39,805 nt of DNA from a virus. A model generated the notes under the pieces. That model searched no databases. It was not told the origin of the DNA and saw only the letters and a program-made list of their open reading frames with translations. A program made the translations under genes and the position numbers. Positions 4,247-25,138 of the stretch are shown piece by piece. Location: IMG/VR virus record IMGVR_UViG_3300039449_000008; one strand, 5' to 3'. The stretch's first letter is position 1. Every line of letters starts with the position of its first letter.

Positions 4247-4274
4247 TTTCCGGTTTTCCGGAAATACGTAAGAC
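4247..4274. promoter_or_regulatory. Iteron array P (tttccgg ttttccgg) plus the AAATACGTAAGAC box, upstream of parA.
   Basis: Sequence tttccggttttccggaaatacgtaagac, 35 bp from the parA start. Member of the seven-locus family. Confidence 0.7.
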
Positions 4275-4296
4275 GAAAAAATATATCTTTTTTAGC

Positions 4297-4313
4297 GGTT
4301 TCCGGTTGGTTTC
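4297..4313. promoter_or_regulatory. Degenerate iteron copy (ggtttccggttggtttc).
   Basis: Partial match to the TTTCCGG unit, 23 bp from array P. Confidence 0.35.
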
Positions 4314-4538
4314 TTCCTAACTCACTGAAAAATAAAAGAAAAATAAAATAGATAAATTATCGACGGGATAGCTTCCGCTTTCTATTCATGCCGCTAGCAA
4401 GCTGAAGTGCTGGCGAATCCACCTTTAAAAAGAATATCAACCAACAACGGGCAAGCCTAAAAAAGTATACGAGATTAATCGTATAGTATGTATATTTTAG
4501 GCACACACAAATATATATATATGCACAAAATATACATA

Positions 4539-4632
4539 CATACCTACACCCCAAATATACATGTACATTTAGCTCCATTATATACGTATATAATGGAGCT
4601 AAATGTACATGTATATTTGGGGTGTAGGTATG
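4539..4632. repeat. 94-bp perfect palindrome, candidate telomere resolution site telRL.
   Basis: 4539-4585 is the exact reverse complement of 4586-4632. The dyad lies at TATAC|GTATA and the core reads CCATTATATACGTATATAATGG. It sits between parA and the protelomerase gene. Confidence 0.85.
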
Positions 4633-4724
4633 CTTTTGTGTGTGTTTTAAATATACATGCTTGCGTTGTGTGTCTTTATAGTGTACTTTTGTGCATGCTG
4701 GTTAATTAATAAGAGGGAATAGGC

Positions 4725-6308
4725 ATGGAAAATCAGAAAAAACGCGCAAGCCAAGGCACTGTCGACCTTGCCGCTGTTATCAGTGACACGATTGACCGTA
4801 TTAAAAAAATAGATGGCCACGCTGATTGGGATCAGTCAGAAAAGACACGTAGGCATAAGGTTTTAGCGGAATCAGTTAAAAACAAACTGCACGAAGATGG
4901 CCGCCGAAGCGATGAAAACAAGGTTTCGCTGGCAACCTATCGCCGTTATTTGACTGACGTTAGAAAAGCGATTACCGCCGAAAACATGCACCACCATAAC
5001 CTAGAAAAAAAGTTGGATGTATTGGCGCGGCGGTATCCAAAACACAACGCTGAATTGCTGGCTATAAAGCGCGACAACATTAGTGACACGCGACTGGCAC
5101 ACAAGGCGGCGCTTGAGTCTCTAATCGACGAATCAGAGGCTTACAGCGACTTGAAAGCGATCATCATTGATCATGAAATCATGCGTCATTTGTCAATGGC
5201 GTCCGCGCAAAAAACGAAACTATCAAACCAGCAGCAAGCGGCCCTTGAAGAAAAGAAACATAACGCTGTCGAAATTGACAAAGACTGGCTACTGGTTACG
5301 ACAGAAAGCCTTTTAAAGCCTGATACAGACAGCCAGATAAGCTTTGCGCGCTTAGCGCTTGGTATCGCGTTTGCTACTGGTCGCCGGGCGATTGAAGTGC
5401 TTTATCAAGGCAACTTTGAAGCGGCTGGAAAATATGAGCTCACATTTTCAGGCTTTGCGAAAAAGCGCGGCGGTGCTGATTACAGCAACAAAGCGCGAAT
5501 TTATACCATCGTACCCGCCTCTGACGTGTTAGCGGCGGTTGAACTGCTACGCCAACAGCCAGAAATTGAAGCCATGCGTAATGACTTTGGAAGCCTCCCA
5601 GAAGGCGAACGAAACCGCGCGGTTAACCATCGCGCGGCGGCAAACCTAAACAACACCGCCAAACGCGTTTTTGGTGATGAAACCCGCGTATTTCGTGACA
5701 GCCGCGCCGTATGGGCAAGGTTCGTTTTTGAAGAACATTTTCGCAAAGACCCGCGCTGGAAAAAATTAGACGAAGACGTATTCTGGCACCAGCAACTAGG
5801 GCACGAAGACCTAGACACCCAGCAAGCGTACAAGCAATTTAAACTAATCGATGTCGAGCGCGGAGGCGATCAAGACCGCCTTTCTGCAGTCAAAGCACTG
5901 GCCAGAAACCCAGAAGTTATGAAGCGTGGTGCATTACAAAAAATAAACGCCTGGGCGGTTTCAGTGCTTGAAAACGACCCTACTGACAAAATCACACAGC
6001 ATCGAATTATCAGCGAGCTTGGATCTGGCCGGGGCGTGATTAAAGACTGGCTAACACTTGCTGAAGATGCGTTAAACCTTGATCCGGTGGCAAATCGCAC
6101 CCAAAAACACGAAGAAAAGCCGCAAAGAAAAGAAGAAAGCAAACCAGCGGCCCAAATGGATAAACCGCGCATCCGCGCTACTAAAGACGGCGGCTGGTGG
6201 TTGGTGTCTATCGAGATTGACGGCGCTGAATATGAATACACATACCACGCCGACGAATATGGCCGTGGTGATGCTATGGCCGCCGCATGGGCTGAACACG
6301 CTGAATAA
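4725..6308 (+). CDS. telN: Protelomerase (telomere resolvase, TelN/TelK family).
   Basis: 527 aa with tyrosine-recombinase-like boxes ATGRRAIEVL, FAKKRGG, RDSRAVWARFVF, HQQLGHEDL and QQAYKQF. It is adjacent to the palindrome. Synteny par-tel-telN matches N15. Confidence 0.9.
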   Translation: MENQKKRASQGTVDLAAVISDTIDRIKKIDGHADWDQSEKTRRHKVLAESVKNKLHEDGRRSDENKVSLATYRRYLTDVRKAITAENMHHHNLEKKLDVLARRYPKHNAELLAIKRDNISDTRLAHKAALESLIDESEAYSDLKAIIIDHEIMRHLSMASAQKTKLSNQQQAALEEKKHNAVEIDKDWLLVTTESLLKPDTDSQISFARLALGIAFATGRRAIEVLYQGNFEAAGKYELTFSGFAKKRGGADYSNKARIYTIVPASDVLAAVELLRQQPEIEAMRNDFGSLPEGERNRAVNHRAAANLNNTAKRVFGDETRVFRDSRAVWARFVFEEHFRKDPRWKKLDEDVFWHQQLGHEDLDTQQAYKQFKLIDVERGGDQDRLSAVKALARNPEVMKRGALQKINAWAVSVLENDPTDKITQHRIISELGSGRGVIKDWLTLAEDALNLDPVANRTQKHEEKPQRKEESKPAAQMDKPRIRATKDGGWWLVSIEIDGAEYEYTYHADEYGRGDAMAAAWAEHAE

Positions 6309-6495
6309 GCGGGCAATGACTCACCCGCCTGACCATTTCGAGCACATGCTCGGAGTGGTCACGCGCAACCCCTAAAACAATAGCCTCCGACTGGCCCTGC
6401 AGGGCTTGCGACATCGAAACCACATCAAGAATGGCTTGTATTTGAGAAACTGAGCGCTGAAGTTCATCGATCAAACCTTGATAATCCGTATGCAT
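6274..6495 (-). CDS. Hypothetical 73-aa protein, divergent from the HTH gene.
   Basis: AAGGA Shine-Dalgarno 7 nt before the ATG. Helical-looking N-terminal half. Its 3' end overlaps the telN 3' end by 35 nt. Confidence 0.4.
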   Translation of the reverse strand: MHTDYQGLIDELQRSVSQIQAILDVVSMSQALQGQSEAIVLGVARDHSEHVLEMVRRVSHCPLIQRVQPMRRP

Positions 6496-6504
6496 AAATC
6501 AATC

Positions 6505-6525
6505 CTTGTGACAGTTTGTTACAAG
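6505..6525. promoter_or_regulatory. Imperfect palindrome CTTGTGACA-N3-TGTTACAAG, candidate operator.
   Basis: Read directly. It overlaps the SD of the 6274-6495 ORF. A second dyad, GTACA-C-TGTAC, lies at 6550-6560. Confidence 0.35.
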
Positions 6526-6664: not shown

Positions 6665-7105
6665 ATGACACGAAGCGCCCTATGGGCGGCGTTCGGTTAT
6701 CGACTGAAATGGGCCAGGGAAGCGCGGAAAATCAGCAAGACCGAAGCCGCAGAAAAGTTAACAAACAAACTCAACAGCATAAAACCGGCTATAAGTCGCC
6801 GACATATTGCGTACTGGGAGACAATCGACACCCCAGAAGAGAGCACAACTAAAACAAAGATGAGACCACCCCGCCCGCGCGAAATAATTCACCTGGTCGA
6901 GATATATGGCATAAATGGATTGTGGCTGTTTTTATATGAGCGTGAACCCACGCTATCACCAGAGCCGCCCACACGATCTGCGCTATACGGGCGGCCAGAG
7001 GCCCGCAACGCCTCAGAAATCTGGCTGACGGAGCGCATACAGCGGCTAAATGAATCAGATATAGCCCTATTAGTTGACGCCATTGGCGTTGTCCGTAGGA
7101 TCTGA
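6665..7105 (+). CDS. XRE-family helix-turn-helix regulator (second repressor-like protein).
   Basis: KISKTEAAEKL...ISRRHIAYWE HTH pattern followed by IIHLVEIYGINGLWLF. Heads an operon with two lipoprotein genes. Confidence 0.65.
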   Translation: MTRSALWAAFGYRLKWAREARKISKTEAAEKLTNKLNSIKPAISRRHIAYWETIDTPEESTTKTKMRPPRPREIIHLVEIYGINGLWLFLYEREPTLSPEPPTRSALYGRPEARNASEIWLTERIQRLNESDIALLVDAIGVVRRI

Positions 7106-7138
7106 CACAATCGCGATAAATCGACGCAAAGGCACACC

Positions 7139-8213: not shown

Positions 8214-8226
8214 CCATTAAATTAAA

Positions 8227-8403: not shown

Positions 8404-8746
8404 CACGAAAACCCTCTAAAACGTCAGGCAGGTCAGACACGCTGGCAATTAAATGCTCGATTAACTGCGCTTGAGAAACGCCGCTAGTGTCTGCCAACTC
8501 CTTTAAGCGATCCTTTGCCGCATCCACTATTTTTACGTTTAGTGGCACCAGTGTTAACGCGTTTTCTGATTTTGGACGACCCTGACCAGGTCGACGACCA
8601 CCCGAACCCGGCTTGCGGATATTGATCACACCCGTCAGCGCATGGCCACACGGCGGAACGCCTTCAGGGCATGACGTAGGTCGCTTGGCGCTTTGAATCG
8701 TCACAGAGCCGTGTACCGGGCAATTAGCTGTATATTTTGATGTCAT
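8390..8746 (-). CDS. DNA-binding protein with an N-terminal Cys/His cluster and a C-terminal ribbon-helix-helix.
   Basis: CPVHG...CPEGVPPCGH, then a basic linker RKPGSGGRRPGQGRPK, then LVPLNVKIVDAAKDRLKELADTSGVSQAQLIEHLI (beta-alpha-alpha). Confidence 0.55.
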   Translation of the reverse strand: MTSKYTANCPVHGSVTIQSAKRPTSCPEGVPPCGHALTGVINIRKPGSGGRRPGQGRPKSENALTLVPLNVKIVDAAKDRLKELADTSGVSQAQLIEHLIASVSDLPDVLEGFRDVIS

Positions 8747-9691: not shown

Positions 9692-9951
9692 TAAGATAAA
9701 CCGAATTCACTGGCAAAGTTTTTGAACTCTTGAATTGTGTCAGTGCTGATTAAGCGTTCGATTTCTGATTTAGATAGCGTTTTCACCGGGAAATTTTTGT
9801 ATCTTTCCAGAGTGTGGGCACTTTCAACATAAACAGAAAAAGAACCATCGCTCATTTCATCATAAGCAAAACGAACTTGTTTAACATTTCCGCCAATCGT
9901 CGCGCGGAATCCAACTGTAGAATTACATTTAACTCGTTTTAAATTTTGCAT
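9691..9951 (-). CDS. Hypothetical 86-aa protein.
   Basis: ORF in the co-oriented operon, with stop/start abutment to the next gene. Confidence 0.5.
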   Translation of the reverse strand: MQNLKRVKCNSTVGFRATIGGNVKQVRFAYDEMSDGSFSVYVESAHTLERYKNFPVKTLSKSEIERLISTDTIQEFKNFASEFGLS

Positions 9952-10500: not shown

Positions 10501-13500
10501 TTACGCCAGCCCCAATGTCATTAAGTTGGCCGGAATGATCTTGCCAAATCGCTGATCTTTGCATTCGGGATCGAACCAGCCACGCGCTAAGCGCATCAAG
10601 TTCGGAATAGTCAGCGCCCCAAGTCGGTCGAGTCTGTCCAACGGTCGTTCAGCGGGTATAAACTGGTCACCTGTCGGCTTTTTTAACCATTCGATTACTG
10701 ATAATAAAATATCTTTTTGAGGGGGGGAGATTTTACTATTGGTTCTTATATTGTGTTCAATAATTTCTCCCCCCTCGCTGTAACCCGCATGGTTACTGGT
10801 TTCGATGCGTGATATTGGTAGTATTGAGCTGCTATCTGGCTGGCTATTTGGTAGGTCTTGCGTGGCTAAAAACTCGCTAACGGCGACGCTGTCGTCGTGT
10901 AAATCGGCGGTGGTGTCTTGCTGTAGTGCGTTTTCACCAATCGCGGCGCGCGCTGCGCAATAATCGTTTAATTCAGCGAATTTTTCAGGGTGAAGGCGGT
11001 AGAATTGAACGCCGTTTAATTTTTTCGCGTTAATGATAGGTACAAATCGTTCTAACAGGCCTTTGACGAATCGTGTGGCGCATGTTGGTACCGCATTAAC
11101 TTGCGGTCCAATGCGTAGCGCGTTGTATTCGTCGATGGCGGCTTGCGAGCTTGTGAGCATTGCGACAACGTCGCGCGCTTGCATAACGCTGTACTCACCC
11201 TCTCCTGTTAACGTATCCAGCCCCAGTGTCTCGAAAACCCGGTTTAGGATCTGCCAGCGCGCCATAATTAACCGGCGCTGTGTTAATACGACGCCCTTTT
11301 CGTTTTCCCAGTTTTCGACCTTGCTGACTTGCTCAGCAGTGCCGCGCAGCGTTTCAAGTCGTCTAATTTTTGTTAGTCCGCGACTGTCTAAAAATTCGAT
11401 AGTGTCGTCAGTGACATCGACGCCTAAATGTTTTTCGATTTCATAGCGCGCAAGCTGCGCAATTTGAACTGGCGTTAATAGCTCCTCTTTTTTGAGTTGC
11501 TTGTATTCGTCTTCAGTGGGGGTTGTCGCTGCGTGGATACGATCATGACGCGCGTTTTTAACGATGTCGCGGTCGTTGTTCATTTGCTCCGCGCCCATTT
11601 CTGCGGTGAGGTCGTCAGTCGCGACGGCGTTAATTTTCCAGCCGTCTGCGGCCATTAGCATTAAAGTGTGACTTATGTATTCGCTACGAGAGCGCGCTTG
11701 TGCTGTTACCACGTCAAGATACATATCATCAAAATTCGTGGTACGAATTGTCACGCCGTCGTCAGTGGCCTGCCAGTTTAATGTCTGACGGCTTGATTCA
11801 TACGCCGCTAATAAACCGCGTAACAGAGCATCACGATCGGTCTGGTGTGTGTCGTGGCTTGGTTGCATACCTAACAAAAAAGATTTAGCGCCCCGGTCGC
11901 GTCGTATCATTTGCATGATGTCGGAGGGCACAACAACGCCGTGGAAAAGCGCAAAATGGCAGTCAAACGATGCCGCCGCCGCGCGTATACTCACACCCGA
12001 TGAAATCACCGGGCTATAAATCAACACGTCGACATCAGCCGCAATGCGGTTAGGATCGTCAGAAAATTCGATGGAGGCTTTATCGCCTTTGGTTTCAGCC
12101 GTGATGCACAAAACGCGCGCTGCTGGCCAAGCGGCTTGCACACCTTCGGCAACCATGTGCGCTTTTTTGATTGAGTCAGTAGCTACTAAAATACGGTCAG
12201 TTTTCTTTTTTGCTGTATCGACAATTTGTTGATAAACAAACGCGACGTTATCACAGTAATTAACCGTCAAATCTGGGGCCGGTGAGTCAATTTCGATAAC
12301 GTGTATTGGCTCACCTGGTCGCGCCTGATTTAAAAACGTGATTAAAGAATCGTTGGCGTCCGCGTCAGCCAGTAACACTTTTTCAGCCGCCCGCGCCGCT
12401 GCCACCAGTTTGTTATAGGCTTTTACGGGGGCATGGATAGCGTCTTGCCCTGCCATAACGTGCCGTAACACTTGCGTTGCTTCGTCTACACATAGCAACT
12501 CGGCTTGTTTCCAGTACCAGTCAAATTCCTGCCTAACCACGGAGTTTACGCACGTCACCATGCGCGTATTCCATGACACGTTCACGGCGTCTAACTCACG
12601 ATAATGCTTTAGGTCCAGCTCGTTGGACATTTGATTAGCCAACGAAACCCGGTGAACAATCATACCCGCGCCGCCGTGCGCTTCGCGCATAAGTGGGCCC
12701 ATTACGCGTTCTGTTTTGCCGGTACCGTGTTTGGCTTTTAAAATGATCGATCCTTTTAAGCTGCGGACTAGGTCTAGCACAGTACCCGGAATAACGGCGT
12801 AACCTTCATCTGTGATTTCTGCATTAACTTTAATGTGTTGCACGTTATCACCCGCTAGGGCTTCATCACTAAAATTCTTAGTCGCGGCGGCCATCGCAAA
12901 ACGCTGCTTCACGCACCAGCTCAAAAAGCCCTTGATCGTCGCTAACTGTTTCGCGTTGGCGCTGGCTTGTTTTGGTATTGATTTCAATATCTCACGCGCC
13001 ACGGCTTGGCGGTTGTATTCGTGCGGTACCAAAGCGGCCCCAGCCGAAGCCGCGCGCTTGGCGGCTTTCATAAAGCCGTTTTCGCCGGTCAGTTTTAATA
13101 GCTGCAACTTGTTTAAAAACATGTTTTTTTCAGGCGCAAGGCGCAAGTCACGCGCGGTTAGCTGCTTAGCAACGACGCGCAAACCGCCCAACATTTCAAG
13201 ATCGTTATAATCGGTTGGGTGGTCGTTAATGCTGAATTGATCGAAGCTCGGAGCAGAGGCTTTAACTTTTTTGGCGGTTAATAAGCCTGCCAGTTCAAGC
13301 GCTGCAATAACGCCCGCATTGCCCTTACCTTCCAGAAATTTAAAATGGTCGTTATCCGCGCGAATGACGTGCTTTTTACTGTCGTATAAATACGCGTAAT
13401 GTTTAACGCCACGGGTAAGCCCGTTTTTATCAAAACACACCACCACGGCGATATTGTTGCGGCCCGCTAATACGTGGGCTTTATACACACTCGACCCAGT

Positions 13501-14343
13501 CGCGAAACCTTCAACATAATCAAGCTGGTCAGCGCTGTGAATGTCACCGATAACGATATGCGCTTGCGACATATCAGAGCCGCGCGCGTGGGCTTTACTG
13601 CCGTCCGGGTAGATACGTTGCTGGCCACAATACGCACCCGAAAAATTAATCATCGGAATAGCTAACCAACCGCGCCAGCGTTTACGAAACTTGGTTTCGC
13701 CGCCTTTATAAAATTCTTTACCGGCAACCAAACGCGGCCCCATGTCGCCACACGCCGCGATCACATCCGGCGTAATGCCCTTTTTATTAGCGTAGGAGTA
13801 TTTTGCAACCTGGGCGGCGTTAGTAATGCCGTGTTCGTATCGAATTTGGTAGATTTTGCGTCGTTGCGAGGTGTGCTTTTTTAACCTGCGTTCTTCACGC
13901 GCATTTTTTTCGGCTTGAAGTTCACGTACTTTCTCTTTGCGTAAACGAGCCACACGTATTTTGTCGCGCTCGACATCGTTTAACAGCCGCCCGCCTTCGC
14001 GCTCGAATAATTCCGTAAGGGCTTCATAGCCGTGCCAAAACACAGTAGAACCGCCGTTGGCGTGGGTCGTAAATTGGATGATTGGGTAACGTATGCCGTT
14101 ACGAGCTTCACGCCAGTTTAATTCCATTAAGTGGCGTTGCTTGCGATCCGTTACCGCGATGTCTTTGTTTTTAAGCAAACGACCTGGGGATAATTTAGCC
14201 GTGTTCGACTTATACCAGTCGATATCAACTTCAGCCGCCGTGGCGTTAATGTCGCTTGAAAACTCGTTTAACCAGTCTTCGTGGTGTTCGTTGTCACCGA
14301 AACGATCTTGCCAAAACGTCTTGAGTCCAGTGTTTGTATTCAT
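10501..14343 (-). CDS. repA: Replication protein RepA, a primase-helicase fusion as in N15 RepA / P4 alpha.
   Basis: 1280 aa. Toprim-like VVVCFDKNG and IRADNDHF in the N-terminal third. Walker A KAKHGTGKTE and Walker B LLCVDEATQ in the middle. Confidence 0.9.
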   Translation of the reverse strand: MNTNTGLKTFWQDRFGDNEHHEDWLNEFSSDINATAAEVDIDWYKSNTAKLSPGRLLKNKDIAVTDRKQRHLMELNWREARNGIRYPIIQFTTHANGGSTVFWHGYEALTELFEREGGRLLNDVERDKIRVARLRKEKVRELQAEKNAREERRLKKHTSQRRKIYQIRYEHGITNAAQVAKYSYANKKGITPDVIAACGDMGPRLVAGKEFYKGGETKFRKRWRGWLAIPMINFSGAYCGQQRIYPDGSKAHARGSDMSQAHIVIGDIHSADQLDYVEGFATGSSVYKAHVLAGRNNIAVVVCFDKNGLTRGVKHYAYLYDSKKHVIRADNDHFKFLEGKGNAGVIAALELAGLLTAKKVKASAPSFDQFSINDHPTDYNDLEMLGGLRVVAKQLTARDLRLAPEKNMFLNKLQLLKLTGENGFMKAAKRAASAGAALVPHEYNRQAVAREILKSIPKQASANAKQLATIKGFLSWCVKQRFAMAAATKNFSDEALAGDNVQHIKVNAEITDEGYAVIPGTVLDLVRSLKGSIILKAKHGTGKTERVMGPLMREAHGGAGMIVHRVSLANQMSNELDLKHYRELDAVNVSWNTRMVTCVNSVVRQEFDWYWKQAELLCVDEATQVLRHVMAGQDAIHAPVKAYNKLVAAARAAEKVLLADADANDSLITFLNQARPGEPIHVIEIDSPAPDLTVNYCDNVAFVYQQIVDTAKKKTDRILVATDSIKKAHMVAEGVQAAWPAARVLCITAETKGDKASIEFSDDPNRIAADVDVLIYSPVISSGVSIRAAAASFDCHFALFHGVVVPSDIMQMIRRDRGAKSFLLGMQPSHDTHQTDRDALLRGLLAAYESSRQTLNWQATDDGVTIRTTNFDDMYLDVVTAQARSRSEYISHTLMLMAADGWKINAVATDDLTAEMGAEQMNNDRDIVKNARHDRIHAATTPTEDEYKQLKKEELLTPVQIAQLARYEIEKHLGVDVTDDTIEFLDSRGLTKIRRLETLRGTAEQVSKVENWENEKGVVLTQRRLIMARWQILNRVFETLGLDTLTGEGEYSVMQARDVVAMLTSSQAAIDEYNALRIGPQVNAVPTCATRFVKGLLERFVPIINAKKLNGVQFYRLHPEKFAELNDYCAARAAIGENALQQDTTADLHDDSVAVSEFLATQDLPNSQPDSSSILPISRIETSNHAGYSEGGEIIEHNIRTNSKISPPQKDILLSVIEWLKKPTGDQFIPAERPLDRLDRLGALTIPNLMRLARGWFDPECKDQRFGKIIPANLMTLGLA
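10722..10774. repeat. Inverted repeat GGGGGGAGA / TCTCCCCCC clamping a 35-bp AT-rich spacer inside the repA 3' region, candidate internal ori.
   Basis: Read directly: 9-bp arms at 10722-10730 and 10766-10774, with spacer ttttactattggttcttatattgtgttcaataatt. Confidence 0.3.
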
Positions 14344-14355: not shown

Positions 14356-14400
14356 TTATACGTAAAACCGGAAAACCGGAAAACCGGAAAACCGTATAAT
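14356..14400. promoter_or_regulatory. Iteron array R, 13 bp upstream of the repA start, overlapping a perfect TATAAT on the + strand.
   Basis: ttatacgtaaaaccggaaaaccggaaaaccggaaaaccgtataat. Read on the minus strand it gives three TTTTCCGG units followed by TTTTACGTATAAC. Confidence 0.75.
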
Positions 14401-14406: not shown

Positions 14407-14505
14407 ATTAATAACAGGGATGGTTACACTGGTGTTCTTAGTGTAGGCCTCTGTCCAGTGTGCCCACCCCGAAAAACTCGCAGCGCCAACTGCGGGTTTT
14501 TTTTT
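14407..14505 (+). ncRNA. Candidate ~100-nt small RNA between repA and the cI-like gene.
   Basis: Perfect -10 TATAAT at 14395-14400. Internal 7-bp hairpin acactgg/ccagtgt (14426-14461). Strong terminator at 14477-14505. No ORF longer than 8 codons. Confidence 0.3.
14477..14505 (+). terminator. Rho-independent terminator; its complement could also act on the minus strand after cI.
   Basis: Stem ctcgcag/ctgcggg (7 bp, one G-U), loop cgccaa, then T9. Confidence 0.7.
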
Positions 14506-14625: not shown

Positions 14626-14634
14626 AACTATAGT
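14626..14634. promoter_or_regulatory. Copy of the AACTATAG(T) operator-like motif between cI and repA.
   Basis: caACTATAGTg read directly. The same motif occurs at 15335-15342 and 15358-15367. Confidence 0.3.
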
Positions 14635-15357: not shown

Positions 15358-15367
15358 AACTATAGTT
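15358..15367. promoter_or_regulatory. Perfect 10-bp palindrome AACTATAGTT in the divergent cI/rightward-operon region, candidate operator.
   Basis: Read directly. It contains TATAGT in both orientations. A half-copy AACTATGG lies at 15335-15342. Confidence 0.4.
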
Positions 15368-15442: not shown

Positions 15443-16030
15443 ATGATGGACCACTCTCATAGTCTGTCGCTCGATAGTATCTTGCTGTCAGCAACAAAAG
15501 ATTACTTGGCGAATTCCGCAGACACGCAGCGGACTTTTGCCGAAAAACGCTTATTGCCACAAATTCAGGCGCACGGCGTACCGGGTCCAAGGCCGCCGGG
15601 TGATTCCACGACCGTCGACGAATACACCGCCCGCATTAACAACATGCAAAACACGTACAGCCGAATCATGAACGGAACCAGCTTAATCCCGTTGGCTTGG
15701 CTATGGCCGTGGGTGTACGCCCTGCCAATCTCCTATCGATCACGCGTTGTTAATCAGATCCGCGCCCAATTACCCGACACCGTACCATCGTTAGCCACTG
15801 GTGCCAGTACCCACGCGAATATAGGCCGTTTAGCGACTGAAGCCGGCGAAGCCATTACATCATTAGCAGGCATCGCCGCTGACGGCGTTTACAACGACGA
15901 AGATGATCCGAAAGAAGTTAAAGCCGCGCTGAATGAACTTTACGACCTACGCGACCAAGCACAAGCCGAAGCCGAAGCCGAAGCGCTTGAGTCCGGTACC
16001 GGCTTAAACGTATCACGCACTAACCGCTAA
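15443..16030 (+). CDS. Hypothetical 195-aa protein in the cro/cII position, a possible lysis-lysogeny regulator.
   Basis: First rightward gene opposite cI. Acidic (EA)n C-terminus. Only a vague resemblance to P2/186 CII-type regulators. Confidence 0.4.
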   Translation: MMDHSHSLSLDSILLSATKDYLANSADTQRTFAEKRLLPQIQAHGVPGPRPPGDSTTVDEYTARINNMQNTYSRIMNGTSLIPLAWLWPWVYALPISYRSRVVNQIRAQLPDTVPSLATGASTHANIGRLATEAGEAITSLAGIAADGVYNDEDDPKEVKAALNELYDLRDQAQAEAEAEALESGTGLNVSRTNR

Positions 16031-16043: not shown

Positions 16044-16664
16044 ATGTTGACAGACGCCGGTAAAAACAATCTGAGAAGTTTTATATTTTCAGTGTTTTCA
16101 GTGCATGCGCCGTCTCGTAGCTTTGACTATGCCGCGATACGAGTGCAGTCGTCCGCGCCTGTGTCTGCCCCTATGCCTGTGACCATGTCACAACTCGAAA
16201 ACAGGTCATACGTTGCCGCCATTCGCCAGCTATCAACACCCGCCGCCGCGTGGGTACGTTGGGCGTATGCGAGCCGACACTCAGACGCCGCCAACCACGA
16301 TATGGAAATCGTCGCGCGGAATCTATGGGATGACTACAGCAGCACCCTGCACAGCACCACCGAAGAACAACGCGAACGAATTATGCGACTTGTACAGCCA
16401 GCAATGGAGCAAGTCGCATTCGTTCAGCGTTTAGGAAAAAAACGATATAGCCGCGCCGATTTGTACGATCTAACGTGCTGTCCTGAAAGTTCATGGCAAC
16501 GCGATATGCAACCGCATTGGAAAGCACTCCAAGACAATCTTAAAAACCAAGACAACGCCGCCCTACGCCGCCTAAGCCTGATTTTTGACATTGTCGATCA
16601 ACGTAAAGCGCTTGGGAGCGCTAACGAAATTGCCGCAGATGCACAAATGAGCATTGCGGTTTAA
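16044..16664 (+). CDS. Hypothetical 206-aa protein, a possible Q-like late antiterminator.
   Basis: Position matches Q in the N15/lambdoid immunity regions. The STPAAAWVRWAYA segment is reminiscent of Q-family proteins. This is a weak call. Confidence 0.3.
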   Translation: MLTDAGKNNLRSFIFSVFSVHAPSRSFDYAAIRVQSSAPVSAPMPVTMSQLENRSYVAAIRQLSTPAAAWVRWAYASRHSDAANHDMEIVARNLWDDYSSTLHSTTEEQRERIMRLVQPAMEQVAFVQRLGKKRYSRADLYDLTCCPESSWQRDMQPHWKALQDNLKNQDNAALRRLSLIFDIVDQRKALGSANEIAADAQMSIAV

Positions 16665-16704
16665 CGGTTTTCCGGTTTTCCGGTTTTCCGGAATTACGTA
16701 AAAC
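16665..16704. promoter_or_regulatory. Iteron array C (three TTTTCCGG units) plus AATTACGTAAAAC, upstream of the rdgC-like gene.
   Basis: cggttttccggttttccggttttccggaattacgtaaaac. It starts 1 nt after the upstream stop and ends 26 nt before the ATG at 16731. Confidence 0.8.
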
Positions 16705-16730: not shown

Positions 16731-18140
16731 ATGCTTTTAAAACAACTCACAACGTATCAGATCGAAATGCCTACCACGGCCACTGACCAGCCAATCGCGC
16801 TGGTGCCAACGGAATGGCGCGATCATATCGAGCAAAGTGCTCAATCCATGCGCATACGCCCGCTAACGGCGCTACAGCAAACAGGCTCAGGATTTGAGCC
16901 GCCCTTGCATAAAATAAACAGTGAATACGTTGTGGCCGCCGATTCGTGCGGGTTGTTGTTGCTGTGTTACCGGATTGATACCAAGGCGATCAACGCTGCA
17001 GGCATTAAAGAATCGGTAGAAGCAAAAGCCAAAATCATTGAACACGAAGAGGGCCGTCGCGTTCGTAAATTAGAGCGCGAAGCAATCCACGACGATTTTG
17101 TGACAAAAGCACTTCCGCACATCCAACCCACACCAAAGCGCATTTTAATATTGCTGGACCTACGCCGGTACCGCGTTTTGATTGGCACAAAGTCAGAAGA
17201 CTTGGCGACGACATTACGCCGATTATTAGCAGAACACATCGTGCCAGGTTACGAAGTTGAAACCGCTGACGAAAAAGAAGTACGCCGCCCGCGCTTCATC
17301 GTCGATAGCAACTGCAAAGGCGACCCGCGCGAACATTACCGCCAGTGGATGATTCAAGGCGTTCAAGGGCTGCAACTGCATGACGGCGCATACCTCGAAA
17401 AAGAAGCCTCAAAAAACATCATCGTTACCGGGCAGGCGAATGACGCCCAGGTTATCACCGATGCATTAGATGACGGTTACCAGCCGTTTCAGGTGTCTGT
17501 CAGTGTGATGAATACCGAAGCCGACAGCGTTATCGCTGACGTTGTGCTTGATCGTTTCGGCCAATACACGGCAATACGTATCCCCGGCCATCTTGAAATC
17601 ATCAAAAGCACCCACGAAGACGAAAAAGAAGCCGCGATGGCAGACCTACACGCGAACATGGTGCTCACAGCAGGTACAGCACACGACGTAGAACACGCAG
17701 TAAAAGTGGCATTTGGTGACCAGCTTGAAATCCAAGATATATTAAAAAAAGCACTTGATATGCAGCGAACCGCAACTATTGGAACCTCTCTAATTTCTAA
17801 AGTGATGGCTACCGCGTGTTTAAATATGCCAACTGATTCAACCCAGACCATGACATACAAAGTCGGTCAAGGATCAGAGCCAATCGCCGCCCATCCTGAG
17901 GTGATTACAGTTAATGCGCCCGCGATAGAAAGTGAAGCTGATTACAGTATTTATCCCGCCGCTCGTAGTTTCGTCATGGAAAACCAGAAATGCTCGATAT
18001 CAACACTTCAGCGACATCTACGCATTGGCTACAACTATGCCGCGCGAATAGTTGAGAAGCTCGAATTTGAAGGCGTAGTAAGTAAGCCAAGCAACAACGG
18101 CACTCGTAAAGTTTTAATAAGTGAACTAAGCAGTAATTAA
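16731..18140 (+). CDS. rdgC: RdgC-like recombination-associated protein fused to an FtsK-gamma winged-helix domain.
   Basis: The N-terminus MLLKQLTTYQI...LCYRIDTKAINAAGIKESVEAKAKIIEHEEGRRVRKLEREAIHDDF parallels E. coli RdgC. The C-terminus CSISTLQRHLRIGYNYAARIVEKLEFEGVVSKPSNNGTRKVL parallels FtsK gamma. Confidence 0.75.
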   Translation: MLLKQLTTYQIEMPTTATDQPIALVPTEWRDHIEQSAQSMRIRPLTALQQTGSGFEPPLHKINSEYVVAADSCGLLLLCYRIDTKAINAAGIKESVEAKAKIIEHEEGRRVRKLEREAIHDDFVTKALPHIQPTPKRILILLDLRRYRVLIGTKSEDLATTLRRLLAEHIVPGYEVETADEKEVRRPRFIVDSNCKGDPREHYRQWMIQGVQGLQLHDGAYLEKEASKNIIVTGQANDAQVITDALDDGYQPFQVSVSVMNTEADSVIADVVLDRFGQYTAIRIPGHLEIIKSTHEDEKEAAMADLHANMVLTAGTAHDVEHAVKVAFGDQLEIQDILKKALDMQRTATIGTSLISKVMATACLNMPTDSTQTMTYKVGQGSEPIAAHPEVITVNAPAIESEADYSIYPAARSFVMENQKCSISTLQRHLRIGYNYAARIVEKLEFEGVVSKPSNNGTRKVLISELSSN

Positions 18141-18144
18141 TAAA

Positions 18145-18196
18145 ATTCCGGTTTTCCGGTTTTCCGGTTTTCCGGTTTTCCGGAATTACGTAAAAC
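18145..18196. promoter_or_regulatory. Iteron array S (four to five TTTTCCGG units) plus AATTACGTAAAAC, upstream of ssb.
   Basis: attccggttttccggttttccggttttccggttttccggaattacgtaaaac, ending 18 nt before the ssb ATG. Confidence 0.8.
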
Positions 18197-18808: not shown

Positions 18809-19152
18809 TGGATATCCAAGCGATTTATACCGTATTGATTTTGGTTTTATTAGTAACTCTCTATTTTTTGGGTGTTGTGTTATCAAAAAACCAATATGAC
18901 CCGATCACGATTGAAATAGAGCCGGTCGAAGATGAAAGCGAGATACTGCGCGAAACAGTTAAAGCGCTGCAGAATTGCCGCAATGACTTTAACGCCGCCT
19001 GTCGTGAATATTGCGTACCGCGCGAAGTAATGGCAAAGCGTCTTGATGCGCGCGGGATCGTCAAAGAATACAACCGCGCGCGAAATATACTCTCTCAAAG
19101 TTTTGGCATAGAAGTGCCCGAGCTGGTGAAAGAAATCGACGTGAGGGCGTGA
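18808..19152 (+). CDS. Hypothetical membrane-anchored 114-aa protein.
   Basis: The ATG overlaps the ssb stop (TAATG). N-terminal TM segment IYTVLILVLLVTLYFLGVVL. Confidence 0.5.
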   Translation: MDIQAIYTVLILVLLVTLYFLGVVLSKNQYDPITIEIEPVEDESEILRETVKALQNCRNDFNAACREYCVPREVMAKRLDARGIVKEYNRARNILSQSFGIEVPELVKEIDVRA

Positions 19153-19154
19153 TA

Positions 19155-19661
19155 ATGACCGATACAAACAACGCCATGACAATTAAAGAAATGGCATTAA
19201 AACAACTGCTAAAGCTGCAGCCTTGTACAAGCGCTGATTTACGAGAGGCTTGCAACTGGCCAGACCGTCAGCCCGCCAACGTTCTAAGCGTGTTGCGACG
19301 TGAAGGCCTAGCTGTATTTATCGACGGTGAAAACTTCCTAACTGACGACGGCGTAAAAGCGGCAAATGGGGAAACCCCACTAACGCGCCCCGCGCCGCCG
19401 GTAGAACTAACCCAACGTCCAATCAGCAAAAAAGCTCAGACAGTGAAGGCCGATATTCAAAAAGCAAAGACGGCCTTAGAAAATATTAAATCCAACGAAA
19501 ACCGTAAAACCGGAAAACCGGAAAACCGTAAGACTGAGAATTACGCAAACGATTACGACTTACTCGACCGATTAATCGAAACATTTGTTAGCGCCGCCGA
19601 TGATATAAAGCGAATTAAAACCCGACTTAAAACACTCGATTTAACAACAGGGCAGGGCTAA
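19155..19661 (+). CDS. Hypothetical winged-helix-like DNA-binding protein.
   Basis: The N-terminus ALKQLLKLQPCTSADLREACNWPDRQPANVLSVLRREGLAV looks MarR/wHTH-like. GAGGG SD before the ATG at 19155. Contains iteron array W. Confidence 0.5.
   Translation: MTDTNNAMTIKEMALKQLLKLQPCTSADLREACNWPDRQPANVLSVLRREGLAVFIDGENFLTDDGVKAANGETPLTRPAPPVELTQRPISKKAQTVKADIQKAKTALENIKSNENRKTGKPENRKTENYANDYDLLDRLIETFVSAADDIKRIKTRLKTLDLTTGQG
19496..19550. promoter_or_regulatory. Iteron array W (four AAAACCGK units) plus GAATTACGCAAAC, inside the wHTH gene.
   Basis: cgaaaaccgtaaaaccggaaaaccggaaaaccgtaagactgagaattacgcaaac, translated as NENRKTGKPENRKTENYAN. Confidence 0.7.
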
Positions 19662-19897: not shown

Positions 19898-20280
19898 ACA
19901 TCGCCATGGCTAGGCTTGCCGAAAAATTAGGCATTGATCACGCAAAAATGACGCGCGAAAAAATGGCTGAAGTAGTCAGCGAAAAAGCACTGTTGCACAT
20001 TATTGAATTAGAGCGTGTGAACCATATACCCGCCGCTGGAGAGGTGTTTGGTGTGATAGCGGGAAAATATGAAGGTAATGAAATAAATTGCAAATATAGC
20101 GCCGAATTCCCAACTCTAGATGAAGCAATAGAATCCTATGATCAAGTAATAAGCTGTCCTTGGGCTTATATTTTGTACAAAGGCCGCATACTTGGTTTAT
20201 TTTCAAAAACATTCTATCCATTAGATTTTCCCGCCGCTGGTGATATGGTTCGCGAGGTTCGTCATGAATCCGGTTGTTAA
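19894..20280 (+). CDS. Hypothetical 128-aa protein.
   Basis: ORF with 4-nt start/stop overlap to the upstream gene. No motif recognised. Confidence 0.45.
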   Translation: MNIAMARLAEKLGIDHAKMTREKMAEVVSEKALLHIIELERVNHIPAAGEVFGVIAGKYEGNEINCKYSAEFPTLDEAIESYDQVISCPWAYILYKGRILGLFSKTFYPLDFPAAGDMVREVRHESGC

Positions 20281-21136
20281 CACCTATTTTTCCGGCATAG
20301 GCATGTTAGATATAGGCCTGCAAAACGCGGGTATGACGATAGGGCAGGCGTTTGAATTAGACGCTGATGCTTGCAAGACATACCGCGCAAATCATAGCCA
20401 CAAACTGATAGAAGGCGATTTATCTAAACAATTAGTTTTAGACCAAGACGCTTGCGACATGATGGCCTTCACATACCCTTGCACTAAATACAGCCGTATT
20501 GCAGACATTCACGGTACCCGAACCGGCGACGAATTGTTTTTGCATGCCTTGCGTCATTTAGCCATTGCCCGCCCAGAGGCTTACAGCGTCGAGAATGTGC
20601 CAGGTATGCGCGCCTTTCCCGTGGTAATGGAGGCGATGACAAAAATGCCTGATTATTACATACAAGTATTTTGCCCAGTGAAAGCCACAACGTGGTTACC
20701 CCAACGCCGTGACCGTTTGATCATTCTTGGCACAAAACGCCGGTTTAATGTTCGCCCGCCTGCACACACAAAACCAATGACACTGGCTGAAGTGATAGAG
20801 ACTGACCCGCGCGTAACGGTACCAAAAGCAGTATTTGAGCGAATGAAGGGATCGTACCGAGATTTGCCTATTATTTCAGATCCAGAAAAAGGCGATATCG
20901 CGCCCACATGCGTGGCCCACTATGCAAAAGATAAAAGCACACGGTTAGTGGTTGATAAACGTTTTAAATTAGGTGTTCGCCCTTACAGTGTCCGTGAATA
21001 TGCGCGCCTTCAAGGCCTACCTGATTCGTTTGTATTCCCAGTGTCCGACACGTCCGCATATCGCCAAATAGGTAATGGCGTACCGCCTCAAATGGGCGAA
21101 TGGTTGGGTGATGAAATGATGCGGTATTTTAATTAA
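20264..21136 (+). CDS. dcm: DNA (cytosine-5)-methyltransferase with no adjacent endonuclease.
   Basis: Motifs I YFSGIGMLDIG, IV TYPCTKYS, VI VENVPGM, VIII LPQRRDRLIILG and X QIGNGVPPQM. The start was chosen at MNPVVN; the track ORF begins at 20240. Confidence 0.9.
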   Translation: MNPVVNTYFSGIGMLDIGLQNAGMTIGQAFELDADACKTYRANHSHKLIEGDLSKQLVLDQDACDMMAFTYPCTKYSRIADIHGTRTGDELFLHALRHLAIARPEAYSVENVPGMRAFPVVMEAMTKMPDYYIQVFCPVKATTWLPQRRDRLIILGTKRRFNVRPPAHTKPMTLAEVIETDPRVTVPKAVFERMKGSYRDLPIISDPEKGDIAPTCVAHYAKDKSTRLVVDKRFKLGVRPYSVREYARLQGLPDSFVFPVSDTSAYRQIGNGVPPQMGEWLGDEMMRYFN

Positions 21137-23114: not shown

Positions 23115-23310
23115 TTCAACCAAAGAAACAAATTTATCGGAAAATTTAGCAAAAAGAATTAGAGCGGCGTTAGGTGATTTTAATGATGACAATGAACCAG
23201 TTACGGCATTGGTTAAGTCAGTCGCCCGCCGATTATCTGCAATCGAGGCCGCCAAGAACTTAGGTTCTGATATTGATCGAATGCGCGAAAAACACTGTAA
23301 AACAAGCTAA
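23107..23310 (+). CDS. Hypothetical 67-aa protein.
   Basis: The ATG overlaps the ASCH stop (ATGTCTAA). Last gene before the late-operon leader. Confidence 0.4.
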   Translation: MSNSTKETNLSENLAKRIRAALGDFNDDNEPVTALVKSVARRLSAIEAAKNLGSDIDRMREKHCKTS

Positions 23311-23446
23311 TTACTACTTAATTAAATTATTTTGCTACTTAAGTATTTACATGTCATATAAAAAACGGCATTTTTTCTATACTGCGAAAAATTCTGTATA
23401 GAGGTCTATCACATCGAGAGAGGCCCACATGTAAAACAATCTTTAA

Positions 23447-23469
23447 ACCGGCCTTGCGCCGGTTTTTTT
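23447..23469 (+). terminator. Rho-independent terminator in the leader of the lysis/late operon.
   Basis: Stem accggc/gccggt (6 bp), loop cttgc, then a T7 run, 48 nt upstream of the holin start. Confidence 0.7.
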
Positions 23470-23516
23470 ATGTCGCGCATTCGCGCTGGGTAGTCACCCA
23501 ATAACGAGATGGTCAG

Positions 23517-23831
23517 ATGCCTGAGAAAGAAACAATAGACACGACAGTCGGTTTTTGGGCTGACAATCATTTGTATATTTCCATGGCGGTTTTTATGTCT
23601 GTAGTAGTTGCTTATAGATTAGTAGGCACGGAGCCAATCAATATTCGCCGCTTAGCTGGCGAATTGATTCTGGCTTTAGTTGGCGCGGGTGTATTTCACG
23701 CGCTAGGCCTTCTTAAGGGGCTTTCTGGTCCTGAGTATTGGCTAATGATATTTCTTGCTGCCATGGGCGGTTTACGCTCGATTGAGTGGTCTTTAAAAGT
23801 GTTTATTGCGTTAAAAAAGGTGTCTATCTAA
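23517..23831 (+). CDS. Holin candidate.
   Basis: 104 aa with three hydrophobic segments (ISMAVFMSVVVAYRLV, LILALVGAGVFHALGLL, YWLMIFLAAMGGL). Immediately upstream of the endolysin, overlapping it by TAATG. Confidence 0.6.
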   Translation: MPEKETIDTTVGFWADNHLYISMAVFMSVVVAYRLVGTEPINIRRLAGELILALVGAGVFHALGLLKGLSGPEYWLMIFLAAMGGLRSIEWSLKVFIALKKVSI

Positions 23832-24262
23832 TGTCAGGTTTAAAGTTTGGTAAACGTTCTGAATCAAACTTACAGACCTGTGATGACCGCCTTCAGCGAA
23901 TAGCACGCCGCGTGTTGTCTTATGGTGTGACTGATTTTTCAGTAATTGAAGGCCATCGCACATTAGAACGCCAGCTATCCATTTATCACGCCGGTAAGAG
24001 TCAGATCGACGGCGTAAACAAAAAGGGTAAGCATAACGAATATCCAAGCCAAGCCATCGATGTATTGCCATATCCTGCCGTCGTTAACGGTGTCGACGTA
24101 TGGGCCGATAAACAGCGCTTTTGTGTACTAGCTGGTTTATTTATGGCCGCCGCCGCTGAAGAGGGCGTATCTATCCGGTGGGGCGGCGATTGGGATAACG
24201 ACGGCAATAACGCTGACAGCAACTTTAACGATTTACCACACATCGAATTAATAGAGGCCTAA
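23831..24262 (+). CDS. Endolysin, peptidase M15 (VanY / L-Ala-D-Glu peptidase-like).
   Basis: EGHRTLERQ, KHNEYPSQAIDV and NDLPHIEL correspond to the H...D...H zinc-ligand pattern of the M15 family. Confidence 0.8.
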   Translation: MSGLKFGKRSESNLQTCDDRLQRIARRVLSYGVTDFSVIEGHRTLERQLSIYHAGKSQIDGVNKKGKHNEYPSQAIDVLPYPAVVNGVDVWADKQRFCVLAGLFMAAAAEEGVSIRWGGDWDNDGNNADSNFNDLPHIELIEA

Positions 24263-24263
24263 A

Positions 24264-24815
24264 ATGAAATCAATAATCACCGTCATGATTACCATGGCAT
24301 TGTTTGCCTGTGCATCATCCCCAGCACTGGCCGCCAACGGCGAAAAGACAGCGTTTATGTTTGGCCTACTGGATAGCCTAGTCATTAATAAAGCCACTGA
24401 TTCGACAGTAGCAAATGACAAAGAAACAGAGAAAGAGACCACGGTAAATGATGCCGTATTAGCAGCACCTAAACCAGTTACTGACAGTAATCATAACGCT
24501 GATGGTGCTTTAGTTGCCGCTGCACTGGTTGGATTGATCGTTAATAAATATCCGGTTGGTTCGACAGTGGTGGCCTTACTCATTGCGCTGATGCCTCTGC
24601 TGCAGTTATTAGCTAACAGTACACCAAACCCAAAAGACAACGCGTTATTAATATTTATTAATAAGGTGCTGCAATCGTTAACACTGACCAGCTCAAAGAA
24701 TCAAATTAACACAGCGTCATGGTCGACATTATTAACGACCCGGCCAAAGTATTGGCCCGATGCGATCCGGACAGAGGATGTGTTGAAGGTGCACAAGAAA
24801 GTAACAGACAACTGA
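24264..24815 (+). CDS. Lipoprotein with an internal hydrophobic hairpin, in the third lysis-cassette position (possible spanin-like function).
   Basis: Lipobox MKSIITVMITMALFAC. Hydrophobic stretch GALVAAALVGLIVNKYPVGSTVVALLIALMPLLQLL. Confidence 0.45.
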   Translation: MKSIITVMITMALFACASSPALAANGEKTAFMFGLLDSLVINKATDSTVANDKETEKETTVNDAVLAAPKPVTDSNHNADGALVAAALVGLIVNKYPVGSTVVALLIALMPLLQLLANSTPNPKDNALLIFINKVLQSLTLTSSKNQINTASWSTLLTTRPKYWPDAIRTEDVLKVHKKVTDN

Positions 24816-25087
24816 CTTCCCCAGCGCGGCCACCCACCGCGCAATCTCTAACCACTTCGGTGGTTTCCCCCGCCGTCTAAGTCAGGCTACCCACTTGGCT
24901 TAGGCGGCTCCCTTACTAAAAGTTAAGGTAAGAATATTTTTTAATAATGGTTATTATTGATTAAGAAATACCTTTAAAATCAATGGGTTATACACGATAC
25001 CCCCCTAGTCTAGGTTCTCCCCAGAACCCCCCACGTCGTGGGCTAGATGGGCACGGAAAGTGTGTAGCTAAGGGTAAAAAAAATTAA
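24816..25087. other. Probable cos/packaging-recognition region.
   Basis: Non-coding 272 bp directly upstream of terS. It holds three GC-rich hairpins (24824-24842, 24850-24865, 24870-24907), an AT-rich block and C6 tracts flanking the ggttct-cccc-agaacc hairpin (24999-25032). Confidence 0.35.
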
Positions 25088-25138
25088 AGCGTTTCCGTTT
25101 CCGTTTTACGGAAAACCGGAAAACCGGAATTACGTAAA
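25088..25138. promoter_or_regulatory. Iteron array T, with units in inverted orientation, plus AATTACGTAAA abutting the terS ATG.
   Basis: gcgtttccgtttccgttttacggaaaaccggaaaaccggaattacgtaaaATG. Confidence 0.75.

Follow-up and report, generated by a model that had tools for sequence, protein, structure and literature searches.

Six arrays of an 8-bp unit in a telomere phage genome

The stretch of DNA analysed here, referred to as the window, is the whole 39,805-nucleotide virus record IMGVR_UViG_3300039449_000008. Since its ends share a 127-bp direct repeat (1-127 and 39679-39805), it represents a complete, circularly assembled genome with a unit length of ~39.68 kb, in which the cos region (24815-25139) and the telRL site are both internal. 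The element is a telomere phage, that is, one with a linear-plasmid prophage, given that a protelomerase, a telRL palindrome, an N15-type RepA, a CI-like repressor, the antiterminator Q and a lambda-type terminase are all present. Near telRL lie a small parA gene and, directly downstream of it, the gene for a protein of 123 amino acids (aa). Short tandem arrays of an 8-bp unit were found upstream of parA and at five further sites (Table 1). The subject of this report is the arrays and their relation to the 123-aa protein.

The octamer TTTTCCGG occurs 19 times when both strands of the window are counted, compared with 2.5 ± 1.5 times in dinucleotide shuffles (maximum 7). Fourteen of the 19 copies lie inside the six arrays, and the five isolated ones (20288, 29288, 30954, 35852 and 39644) are at chance level. 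CCGG as such is neither enriched nor depleted genome-wide (158 observed, ~149 expected); the distance from one CCGG to the next is exactly 8 bp in 11 cases, whereas each other short spacing was seen once. Tandem Repeats Finder (TRF) reported period-8 arrays at 14364-14394, 16657-16691, 18146-18183, 19497-19528 and 25109-25129. Each array consists of three to six units, in which a 4-bp box with CG at its centre is combined with an A/T spacer, likewise of 4 bp; the main box is the palindrome CCGG, and ACGT, ACGG and CCGT are its variants. Five of the six arrays contain no coding base at all, in a genome that is 12% non-coding (P ~1.5e-4). Measured from the telN end of the 39.7-kb linear prophage, the arrays lie at 9.8, 12.1, 13.6, 14.9, 20.5 and 39.4 kb. 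A consensus sigma-70 promoter scan predicted no promoter at any of the six.

A first-pass annotation, made from the letters of the window, had proposed tandem octamer arrays in non-random positions and had regarded single octamers elsewhere as chance. The motif scan against shuffled controls and the non-coding placement support these proposals. Six of its seven loci are in-register arrays, and the seventh (4297-4313) is degenerate with a 7-bp spacing. Its statement that the arrays end 0-35 bp before start codons fits repA (16 bp), the rdgC-like gene (27 bp), ssb (19 bp) and terS (0 bp), but not parA, for which the gap is 43 bp (ATG 4206). A separate ~13-bp box around TACGTA, also proposed there, was not recovered. 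Its ACGT core falls exactly on the 8-bp register (e.g. CCGG-TTTT-CCGG-AATT-ACGT-AAAA) and is therefore a terminal variant unit of the array, found as a gene-proximal ACGT-AAA(A/C) in most arrays and distal to the gene at parA. TACGTA alone is not enriched in the window (12 observed, 8.1 expected; five copies at arrays), and the sixth copy of the supposed box (AATTACGCAAAC, ~19540) lies off the register by 1 bp and has not been kept in a 97%-identical sister phage. What had been described as one array at 25088-25138 consists of the terS array and a separate cos-proximal element, TTTCCGTTTCCG. That an array heads every major operon is not supported either: the cI/cro switch is free of arrays, and so is the stretch near 23.4 kb where the late promoter and terminator probably lie.

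Table 1. Positions of the arrays, genes and sites of the window discussed in the text
Feature	Position	Strand	Description
parA-proximal array	4247-4274 (boxes 4250-4273)		CCGG-TTTT-CCGG-AAAT-ACGT-AAGA
Degenerate distal repeat	4290-4313		GCGGTTTCCGGTTGG, ~7-bp spacing
repA array	14360-14399		5 boxes: ACGT CCGG CCGG CCGG CCGT; ends 16 bp before repA ATG (14343, minus)
rdgC array	16656-16703		6 boxes: GCGG ACGG CCGG CCGG CCGG ACGT
ssb array	18148-18195		6 boxes: CCGG x5, then ACGT; ends 19 bp before ssb ATG
Coding array	19502-19533		4 boxes: CCGT CCGG CCGG CCGT; within open reading frame (ORF) 19149-19661; sole coding array
terS array	25108-25139		4 boxes: ACGG CCGG CCGG ACGT; in cos-containing intergenic region
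TTTCCGTTTCCG	25092-25103		6-bp period; cos-proximal; distinct from the 8-bp terS array
Putative extended -10 of parA promoter	4235-4243	minus	TGTTATAAA; directly downstream of parA-proximal array
123-aa partner	3167-3538	minus	Proposed centromere-binding protein; start overlaps parA stop (TAATG)
ParA	3538-4206	minus	Small Walker-type, 222 aa from ATG 4206; ORF list extends to GTG 4212 (224 aa)
Telomere-resolution palindrome (presumed)	4505-4666, centre 4585/4586		162 bp; arms 81 nt, 81% complementary; core CCATTATATACGTATATAATGG
Protelomerase (TelN)	4725-6308		
RepA	10501-14343	minus	N15-type, 1280 aa, primase-helicase
CI-like repressor and CII-like protein			Helix-turn-helix (HTH)/S24 repressor; both encoded in window
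Q antiterminator	16044-16664		
RdgC-FtsK-gamma fusion	16731-18140		Pfam 3e-19 (RdgC) and 4e-21 (C-terminal FtsK-gamma winged helix)
SSB and further genes			Including lysis cassette (23517-24815) and lambda-type terminase
C5 cytosine methylase	20240-21136		
Tail-tip J-like protein			Encoded in window

The array next to parA lies ~310 bp from the centre of telRL. A conserved TGnTATAAA element, the putative extended -10 of parA, was read from the sequence and is unflagged by the consensus promoter scan; the array extends over the spacer and the -35 position that belong to it. An array over the -35 and spacer of the parA promoter is the classical autoregulatory arrangement of type Ib partition systems. 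In three relatives (L005, L006 and L021), whose parA and parB genes are ~70-78% identical, the -10 is kept as TGCTATAAA and the orthologous array reads ACGT-AATT-CCGG-AAAA-CCGG-AAAA. The degenerate repeat further from parA has an in-register orthologue in L021, CCGG-CAAA-CCGG-AAAC-CCGT-AAAA.

At the repA array, a TATTAT hexamer resembling a -10 adjoins the distal end, and a terminator-like hairpin (14479-14494) separates the array from cI; a -10-like hexamer adjoins the repA array, or sits upstream of it, in several lineages. Judging from the hairpin and the hexamer, the repA array is probably part of the transcribed leader, and proteins coating it there could impede initiation or escape. The rdgC array starts in the last codons of Q, a TAAAAT hexamer (18141-18146) adjoins the upstream end of the ssb array, and the last spacer of the terS array merges into the terS ATG (25139). 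Since this start is supported by a PHROG 57 alignment from residue 1, the array does reach the ATG. The rdgC, ssb and terS arrays, where no consensus promoter was predicted, may belong to longer transcription units, with a role chiefly as partition complexes or roadblocks. As to the coding array, the L021 homologue of ORF 19149-19661 has no array inside.

Upstream of terS, an A/T run followed by TTTCCG(G)TTTCCG(G) with a 6-7-bp period, of which TTTCCGTTTCCG is the window's version, is also present in L025 (~1255-1275), VHML (15560-15585) and MAR (60-85). It is thus common to telomere phages with differing box classes in their arrays and is probably a cos or TerS-binding element. A portion of the VHML/MAR element is matched exactly by the 13-mer GGTTTCCGGTTGG at 4297-4309 of the window.

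The ParA partner and the recurrence of arrays in related phages

ParA of the window matches Pfam AAA_31 (3e-24) and CbiA (1e-11), the match starting at residue 6, and PHROG 164 (ParA-like, 2e-42); it has no N-terminal HTH or other DNA-binding domain. The TAATG overlap implies that ParA and the 123-aa protein are translationally coupled, and in every relative examined the small parA is directly followed by a gene of the 123-aa type. The locus thus has the make-up of a type-Ib-like system: a small ParA without HTH, a partner gene immediately downstream, and repeats upstream of parA over its putative promoter. The amino acid sequence of the partner starts with a basic tail and can further be read as a putative beta-strand (RLDTTIP) followed by two helices, a beta-alpha-alpha pattern. 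It has no Pfam match above threshold and belongs to PHROG 15913, to which no function is assigned; ParG or another ribbon-helix-helix (RHH) partition family of Pfam was not found for the family even at E values up to 10. A SopB/ParB-like protein was likewise not found among the window proteins in the Pfam and PHROG annotation. Without detectable similarity to ParG or omega, the 123-aa protein would represent a new family.

Six close relatives of the 123-aa protein were found in a collection of 5.8 billion sequences, and an exhaustive profile search yielded three more distant cluster representatives. Scans with the family alignment added a Pseudomonas group, IMG/VR contigs and the deposited plasmid pPcorr-B21-055. 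Gp52 of VP882 is 32% identical to the window protein over 81 aa and 46% identical to ORF32 of phiHAP-1, which joins the family via the Pseudomonas members. A family member is also encoded by vB_VpaM_MAR, VP585 and VHML (ORF56).

The sister phage mentioned above, IMGVR_UViG_3300039456_000011, was found by an exact 20-mer scan of IMG/VR (three other matching contigs were unrelated). It carries all arrays at the same sites and differs in copy number: the perfect CCGG units of sister and window number 2 vs 3 in the rdgC array, 6 vs 5 in the ssb array and 4 vs 2 in the coding array. In L004, the near-identical genome with these copy numbers, the arrays lie at 4786-4802, 7080-7088, 8549-8589 and 9911-9935. 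Units vary far less within the window arrays than in the arrays of diverged relatives, suggesting that slippage or homogenisation took place recently.

More distant relatives were collected through RepA. L021, L022 and L023 are RepA homologues on long contigs with the gene order of the window, and a RepA-alignment scan of IMG/VR added L025, a contig of the L023 phage type, and a fourth phage, L026. RepA identity to the window is 74% for L021, 58% for L022, 51% for L023/L025 and 49% for L026. Arrays in the 8-bp register stand upstream of repA, ssb and other early genes in L021, L022, L025 and L026, and also after Q or before rdgC; where the contigs span those regions, the terS and parA arrays are present as well. 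Arrays abut terS in L025, pPcorr-B21-055 and phiHAP-1. The layout, from array to Shine-Dalgarno sequence to ATG, is regular across 23 tabulated sites. Spacer polarity is variable, as whether a spacer reads A4 or T4 differs from one array to the next and also at orthologous sites; taken with the palindromic nature of the boxes, this points to a symmetric protein reading duplex DNA rather than to an RNA signal.

The boxes themselves change with the lineage. CCGG makes up ~60% of boxes in the window and L021, whereas ACGC/GCGT and CCGC/GCGG dominate in L022, L025 and L026, where CCGG accounts for 0-6%. The mix is GTAC/GGAC/GAAC in pPcorr-B21-055, phiHAP-1, VP882 and L027, and GTAC/AAAC/GCAC in L030/L077. 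Among the detectors used, an identity-based one for periods was too strict for degenerate arrays and one based on composition and phase was too noisy; strict box-class detectors (NCGN and GNNC, at least 4 units) gave clean results but are blind to AT-rich box classes. With the strict detector, each box class gave 3-6 arrays of at least 4 units per genome, compared with ~0 in shuffles, and the NCGN and GNNC classes never occurred together in one genome. The apparent absence of arrays in L029-L044 is a detector artefact for about half of these genomes, including L030, L032, L034, L035 and L042. These five, together with pPcorr-B21-055, phiHAP-1 and L027, have repA arrays with other boxes.

At every recovered homologue of the 123-aa protein (>30 loci, from siphovirus-type and myovirus-type telomere phages of 41-61% GC), a period-8 array of boxes and A/T spacers lies immediately upstream of parA. 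The box at parA is CCGG/ACGT in the window, L005, L006 and L021, ACGT/ACGG in L017 and L018, GTGT/ACGT in L008, GCGT/ACGCGT in L011 and L020, GTAC/GSCC in the Pseudomonas group, GTTC in L074 and L076, GCAC/ACAC in L070 and L072, and AAAC/GTAC/GTTT in L077. Within a genome, the class at parA is also that of the dispersed sites; between lineages it differs, and residues in and around the putative beta-strand of the family vary in parallel with it. A lineage-specific change of box with constant geometry is what a co-evolving protein would be predicted to leave.

The plasmid pPcorr-B21-055 (L045, NZ_CP102178.1, Pseudomonas corrugata) is deposited as a 75.5-kb "circle" and represents a head-to-head dimer of a ~37.7-kb telomere phage-plasmid of myovirus type and 61% GC, in which mirrored copies of telomere resolvase and RepA meet at ~37.28 kb. 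Its GTAC/GGAC/TCAC arrays adjoin the start codons of repA and terS, and the repA array overlaps the ATG. L019 is a palindromic contig too, from read-through of a hairpin telomere. Five GTAC-class arrays were found in phiHAP-1, namely at the starts of parA and repA, before ORF28, after Q and beside cos/terS. Two of these in the phiHAP-1 record (L046), at 26517-26617 and 32953-32992, fall inside the annotated 5' ends of parA and repA, whose annotated start codons are therefore probably too far upstream. VP882 has three GTAC-class arrays and a 3-unit array 39 bp upstream of parA, L027 has one GTAC-class array directly upstream of repA, and the L077/L030 phage has its own box class at both parA and repA. 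By contrast, no such arrays were found in N15, which has SopAB, or in Valp1, which has a large ParA and a ParB, despite their shared RepA, TelN, Q and CI-type genes. Collectively, these comparative data tie the arrays to the family of the 123-aa protein.

Proposed function of the arrays and competing explanations

From sequence comparison and analogy, it seems probable that the arrays bind the small partner of ParA, with the role of a dispersed centromere and, for the parA array at the least, that of an operator as well. They would be duplex-DNA sites for several dimers of the 123-aa protein of a type-Ib-like partition system. One dimer would occupy each palindromic box of 4 bp (CCGG or one of its weaker variants, ACGT, ACGG or CCGT), the 4-bp A/T spacers would set the 8-bp pitch, and three to six dimers would coat an array cooperatively, as ParG does on OF/parH of TP228. 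The array next to parA, overlapping the promoter, would mediate autoregulation of parAB. The longer arrays (at repA, after Q, at ssb, in ORF 19149 and at terS) would form extra, and probably the strongest, ParA-activating partition complexes along the prophage. They probably also damp the expression of repA and lytic genes in the lysogen, since they take up the short stretch of leader that separates the ribosome-binding site from a promoter or preceding gene. We infer binding by the 123-aa protein, one dimer per box, centromere activity and repression from the sequence data described above.

Several observations weigh against this proposal. An RHH fold for the 123-aa protein is weakly supported: the Antitox_RHH match of Pfam is sub-threshold (E 0.01-0.03), covers the second helix only and was obtained for four of seven family members; two AlphaFold monomer models have predicted local distance difference test (pLDDT) scores of 46 and 55 and form no beta-strand; and sequence and profile searches of the Protein Data Bank with the family gave no match. 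The array at parA is the shortest of the six, which is unusual for a type Ib centromere. VHML and MAR encode a family member but have only short arrays and are weak positives, and N15 and Valp1 are the only two firm negatives. The co-occurrence of arrays and family is partly confounded by shared ancestry and other shared genes. Since no consensus sigma-70 promoter was predicted at the dispersed arrays, the operator half of the proposal is weaker than the binding-site half.

It is unlikely, in our judgement, that the arrays are operators or activator sites of another phage or host regulator that also controls parAB, the 123-aa protein binding elsewhere or not at all. Such a regulator would suit the many early genes that arrays precede, as in a regulon, and is favoured by the way in which the 123-aa protein was singled out, through position and co-occurrence, and by the low confidence of its fold models. 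However, the CI-like repressor, Q, RepA and TelN are all encoded by the array-free N15 and Valp1 as well; the CI-type operators are distinct palindromes with a ACTATAGT core; and RdgC-FtsK-gamma and SSB are unannotated in the array-bearing pPcorr-B21-055, on which ground RdgC-FtsK-gamma was rejected as the binder. The product of ORF 19149-19661, which the first-pass annotation had named as an alternative reader with a winged HTH, gave no HTH match and has no homologue in L022, L025 or L026. The box class follows the lineage of the 123-aa protein. The remaining suggestions of that annotation concerning partition fared better: its small ParA with an adjacent small partner stands, the two genes being coupled, and its analogies to omega of pSM19035 and to the dispersed centromeres of N15 are apt. 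Its impression that the architecture is foreign to described telomere phages does not hold, given the GTAC-box version in the published genomes of phiHAP-1 and VP882.

We see little room for the arrays as protein-independent cis elements, either a special class of promoter or UP element, in which an in-register ACGTAAAAC would serve as a -10-like hexamer, or phased A-tracts. The gene-proximal ACGT-AAA(A/C) unit and the regular phasing of the A/T tracts would fit such elements, yet the ACGT unit is gene-distal at parA, and the promoter scan described above speaks against the plain -35/-10 class that the first-pass annotation had considered. The terS array reaches the ATG, the repA array of pPcorr-B21-055 overlaps it and one array lies within an ORF. 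An 8-bp phase is off the helical repeat and thus gives no net bend, parH of ParG, with the same geometry, is not curved (PMC3130281), and the box changes by lineage while the geometry stays. The position of most arrays, ending 10-30 nt from a start codon and abutting the Shine-Dalgarno sequence, could instead suggest that they act in RNA, as repeated 5'-leader motifs bound by a translational regulator. This we regard as the least probable explanation: the boxes are palindromic, the rdgC array is of the T type in the window and of the A type in L021, the terS array is of the A type while the repA, rdgC and ssb arrays are of the T type, and the parA array lies upstream of the -10.

Differences in copy number between 97%-identical genomes, and the C5 methylase encoded by the phage, raise the question of whether the arrays are neutral, slippage-prone intergenic microsatellites or clustered CCGG targets of that enzyme. 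This is very improbable, given that array positions are kept where the proteins are only 34-60% identical, though the unit sequence has diverged, that CCGG is at its expected level genome-wide and that the same design is found in GTAC-class phages. The link to the methylase was rejected on the further ground that the sister phage without it retains all arrays.

Iterons of RepA were rejected as well, given that the same arrays stand at parA, ssb and terS and inside an ORF, and that the homologous RepA of N15 and Valp1 is array-free. A Q-utilisation site or Q-dependent late promoter after Q was rejected in view of the six similar arrays and of the lack of a predicted promoter at 16656-16703; in addition, the strongest plus-strand terminator lies before the lysis genes.

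Returning to binding by the ParA partner, a broader version is conceivable, although we hold it only tentatively and think it rather doubtful as a whole. The 123-aa protein, gp52 of VP882, ORF32 of phiHAP-1 and ORF56 of VHML may form an unrecognised family of small centromere-binding proteins whose regulatory role, in most non-enterobacterial telomere phages, extends over the genome as a whole. Through arrays in the leaders of repA and of early recombination and replication genes and at terS/cos, it might link three processes, namely segregation of the linear prophage, control of its copy number, and the silencing of lytic and packaging genes. Its box specificity would be diversifying rapidly, perhaps as an incompatibility or anti-interference device.

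Other features of the genome and comparison with known systems

A megablast search with 25 kb of the window against deposited phages and plasmids gave zero matches, and the closest cultured relatives are phiHAP-1 and VP882 (TelN 42-46% identity, RepA 32-34%). The core CCATTATATACGTATATAATGG of the 162-bp palindrome resembles N15 telO, and on this likeness we take the palindrome to be the telomere-resolution site. The TACGTA at its centre is unrelated to the arrays. The RdgC-FtsK-gamma fusion is kept throughout the clade of the window. The C5 methylase, without a counterpart in the sister phage, appears to be variable cargo; L022 has a different, larger C5 methylase elsewhere in its genome. The strongest plus-strand hairpin of the intrinsic-terminator type (23445-23465) lies directly 5' of the lysis cassette and is likely tR' of a Q-dependent late operon, distant from the Q gene. 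CI-type operator cores (ACTATAGT, within AAACTATAGTTAG) were seen at 15359-15366, between cI and cro, and at 14627-14634, between the end of cI and repA. Their repetition around cI recalls the CB operators flanking cB in N15. CI operators were rejected as the identity of the arrays, the sites at 15359 and 14627 being different palindromes.

The array design was not found described in the accessible literature, which did not cover the original VP882 and N15 partition papers or the original phiHAP-1 paper; partition and the location of the centromere in non-enterobacterial telomere phages were not found described there either. Among the members of this group are phiHAP-1, VHML and VP882, the last of which serves as a model of how phages eavesdrop on quorum sensing, and for these phages the arrays provide a map of candidate centromere and operator sites together with a candidate binding protein. 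The variants of box and protein (CCGG, ACGC, GTAC, GTTC and GCAC) form a natural panel for the evolution of specificity, and the arrays are a simple sequence signature by which this class of phage-plasmids can be spotted in metagenomes.

Iterons of Rep initiators, which the arrays resemble as tandem short direct repeats upstream of a rep gene, are ~17-22 bp long and are bound by the initiator at the origin; the origin of N15 lies inside repA. The closest likeness in geometry is to ParF-ParG of TP228, a type Ib system with an RHH protein at its centromere, where a small ParA ATPase is likewise followed by a small protein with a flexible basic N-terminus. ParG binds 4-bp boxes regularly spaced by 4-bp AT-rich stretches, in either orientation and with one dimer per box, and its array is both operator and centromere (PMC3130281). 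The 8-bp period, the tolerance of orientation and the position upstream of the operon are shared with the window. However, ParG has no detectable sequence similarity to the 123-aa protein, its boxes are ACTC and not the palindromic CCGG/ACGT (GTAC in relatives), and TP228 has one contiguous region of 20 boxes, whereas the window has six arrays of 3-6 boxes over a 40-kb linear prophage.

Omega of pSM19035, an RHH ParB with global regulatory function, binds arrays of 7-10 heptads at three promoters, including that of a copy-control gene, and at least 4 contiguous repeats are required for activation of its ParA (PMC5016525, PMC9499535). The likeness lies in the mixed-orientation arrays of short repeats at several promoters, including one for replication control, which serve there as centromere and operator, and the array sizes in the window (3-6) are within the range of the repeats required by omega. 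The heptads are 7 bp long and non-palindromic, in contrast to the 8-bp units of box plus spacer, the replicon is a circular Firmicute plasmid and not a linear phage-plasmid of Proteobacteria, and no sequence similarity was detected.

N15 has four centromere sites dispersed along its linear prophage (PMC7205306). With phiKO2 and PY54, it represents the same kind of replicon with a centromere split into dispersed sites, and the phiKO2 record has a "putative plasmid partitioning site" annotated within repA. N15 differs in that its system is of type Ia, with a large ParA of 388 aa and an HTH ParB of 343 aa, and in that each site is a single inverted repeat (IR1-4) and not a tandem array. Sites of a partition protein scattered across the replicon are also known from the IncP plasmid RK2, where OB sites for KorB lie before replication, maintenance and transfer operons, KorB is a global repressor and one OB site serves as the centromere. 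Unlike the arrays, these are not tandem short repeats: each OB site is a single 13-bp palindrome, and the protein bound there, a large HTH ParB, exerts its effect from a distance and together with co-repressors.

The principle, a small partition protein on short-repeat arrays that double as operators, and dispersed centromeres in a telomere phage, is thus already known. What would be new is the 123-aa protein family, together with a repeat unit made of a palindromic box and a spacer, and the placement of arrays of 3-6 such units in the leaders of genes for replication, recombination and packaging. New, too, would be that telomere phages of several genera, well-studied ones among them, keep this design while their boxes change. 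If the dispersed arrays do repress repA, early genes and terS, the partition protein would be a second layer of lysogeny control and would parallel omega of pSM19035 and KorB of RK2, but in a phage.

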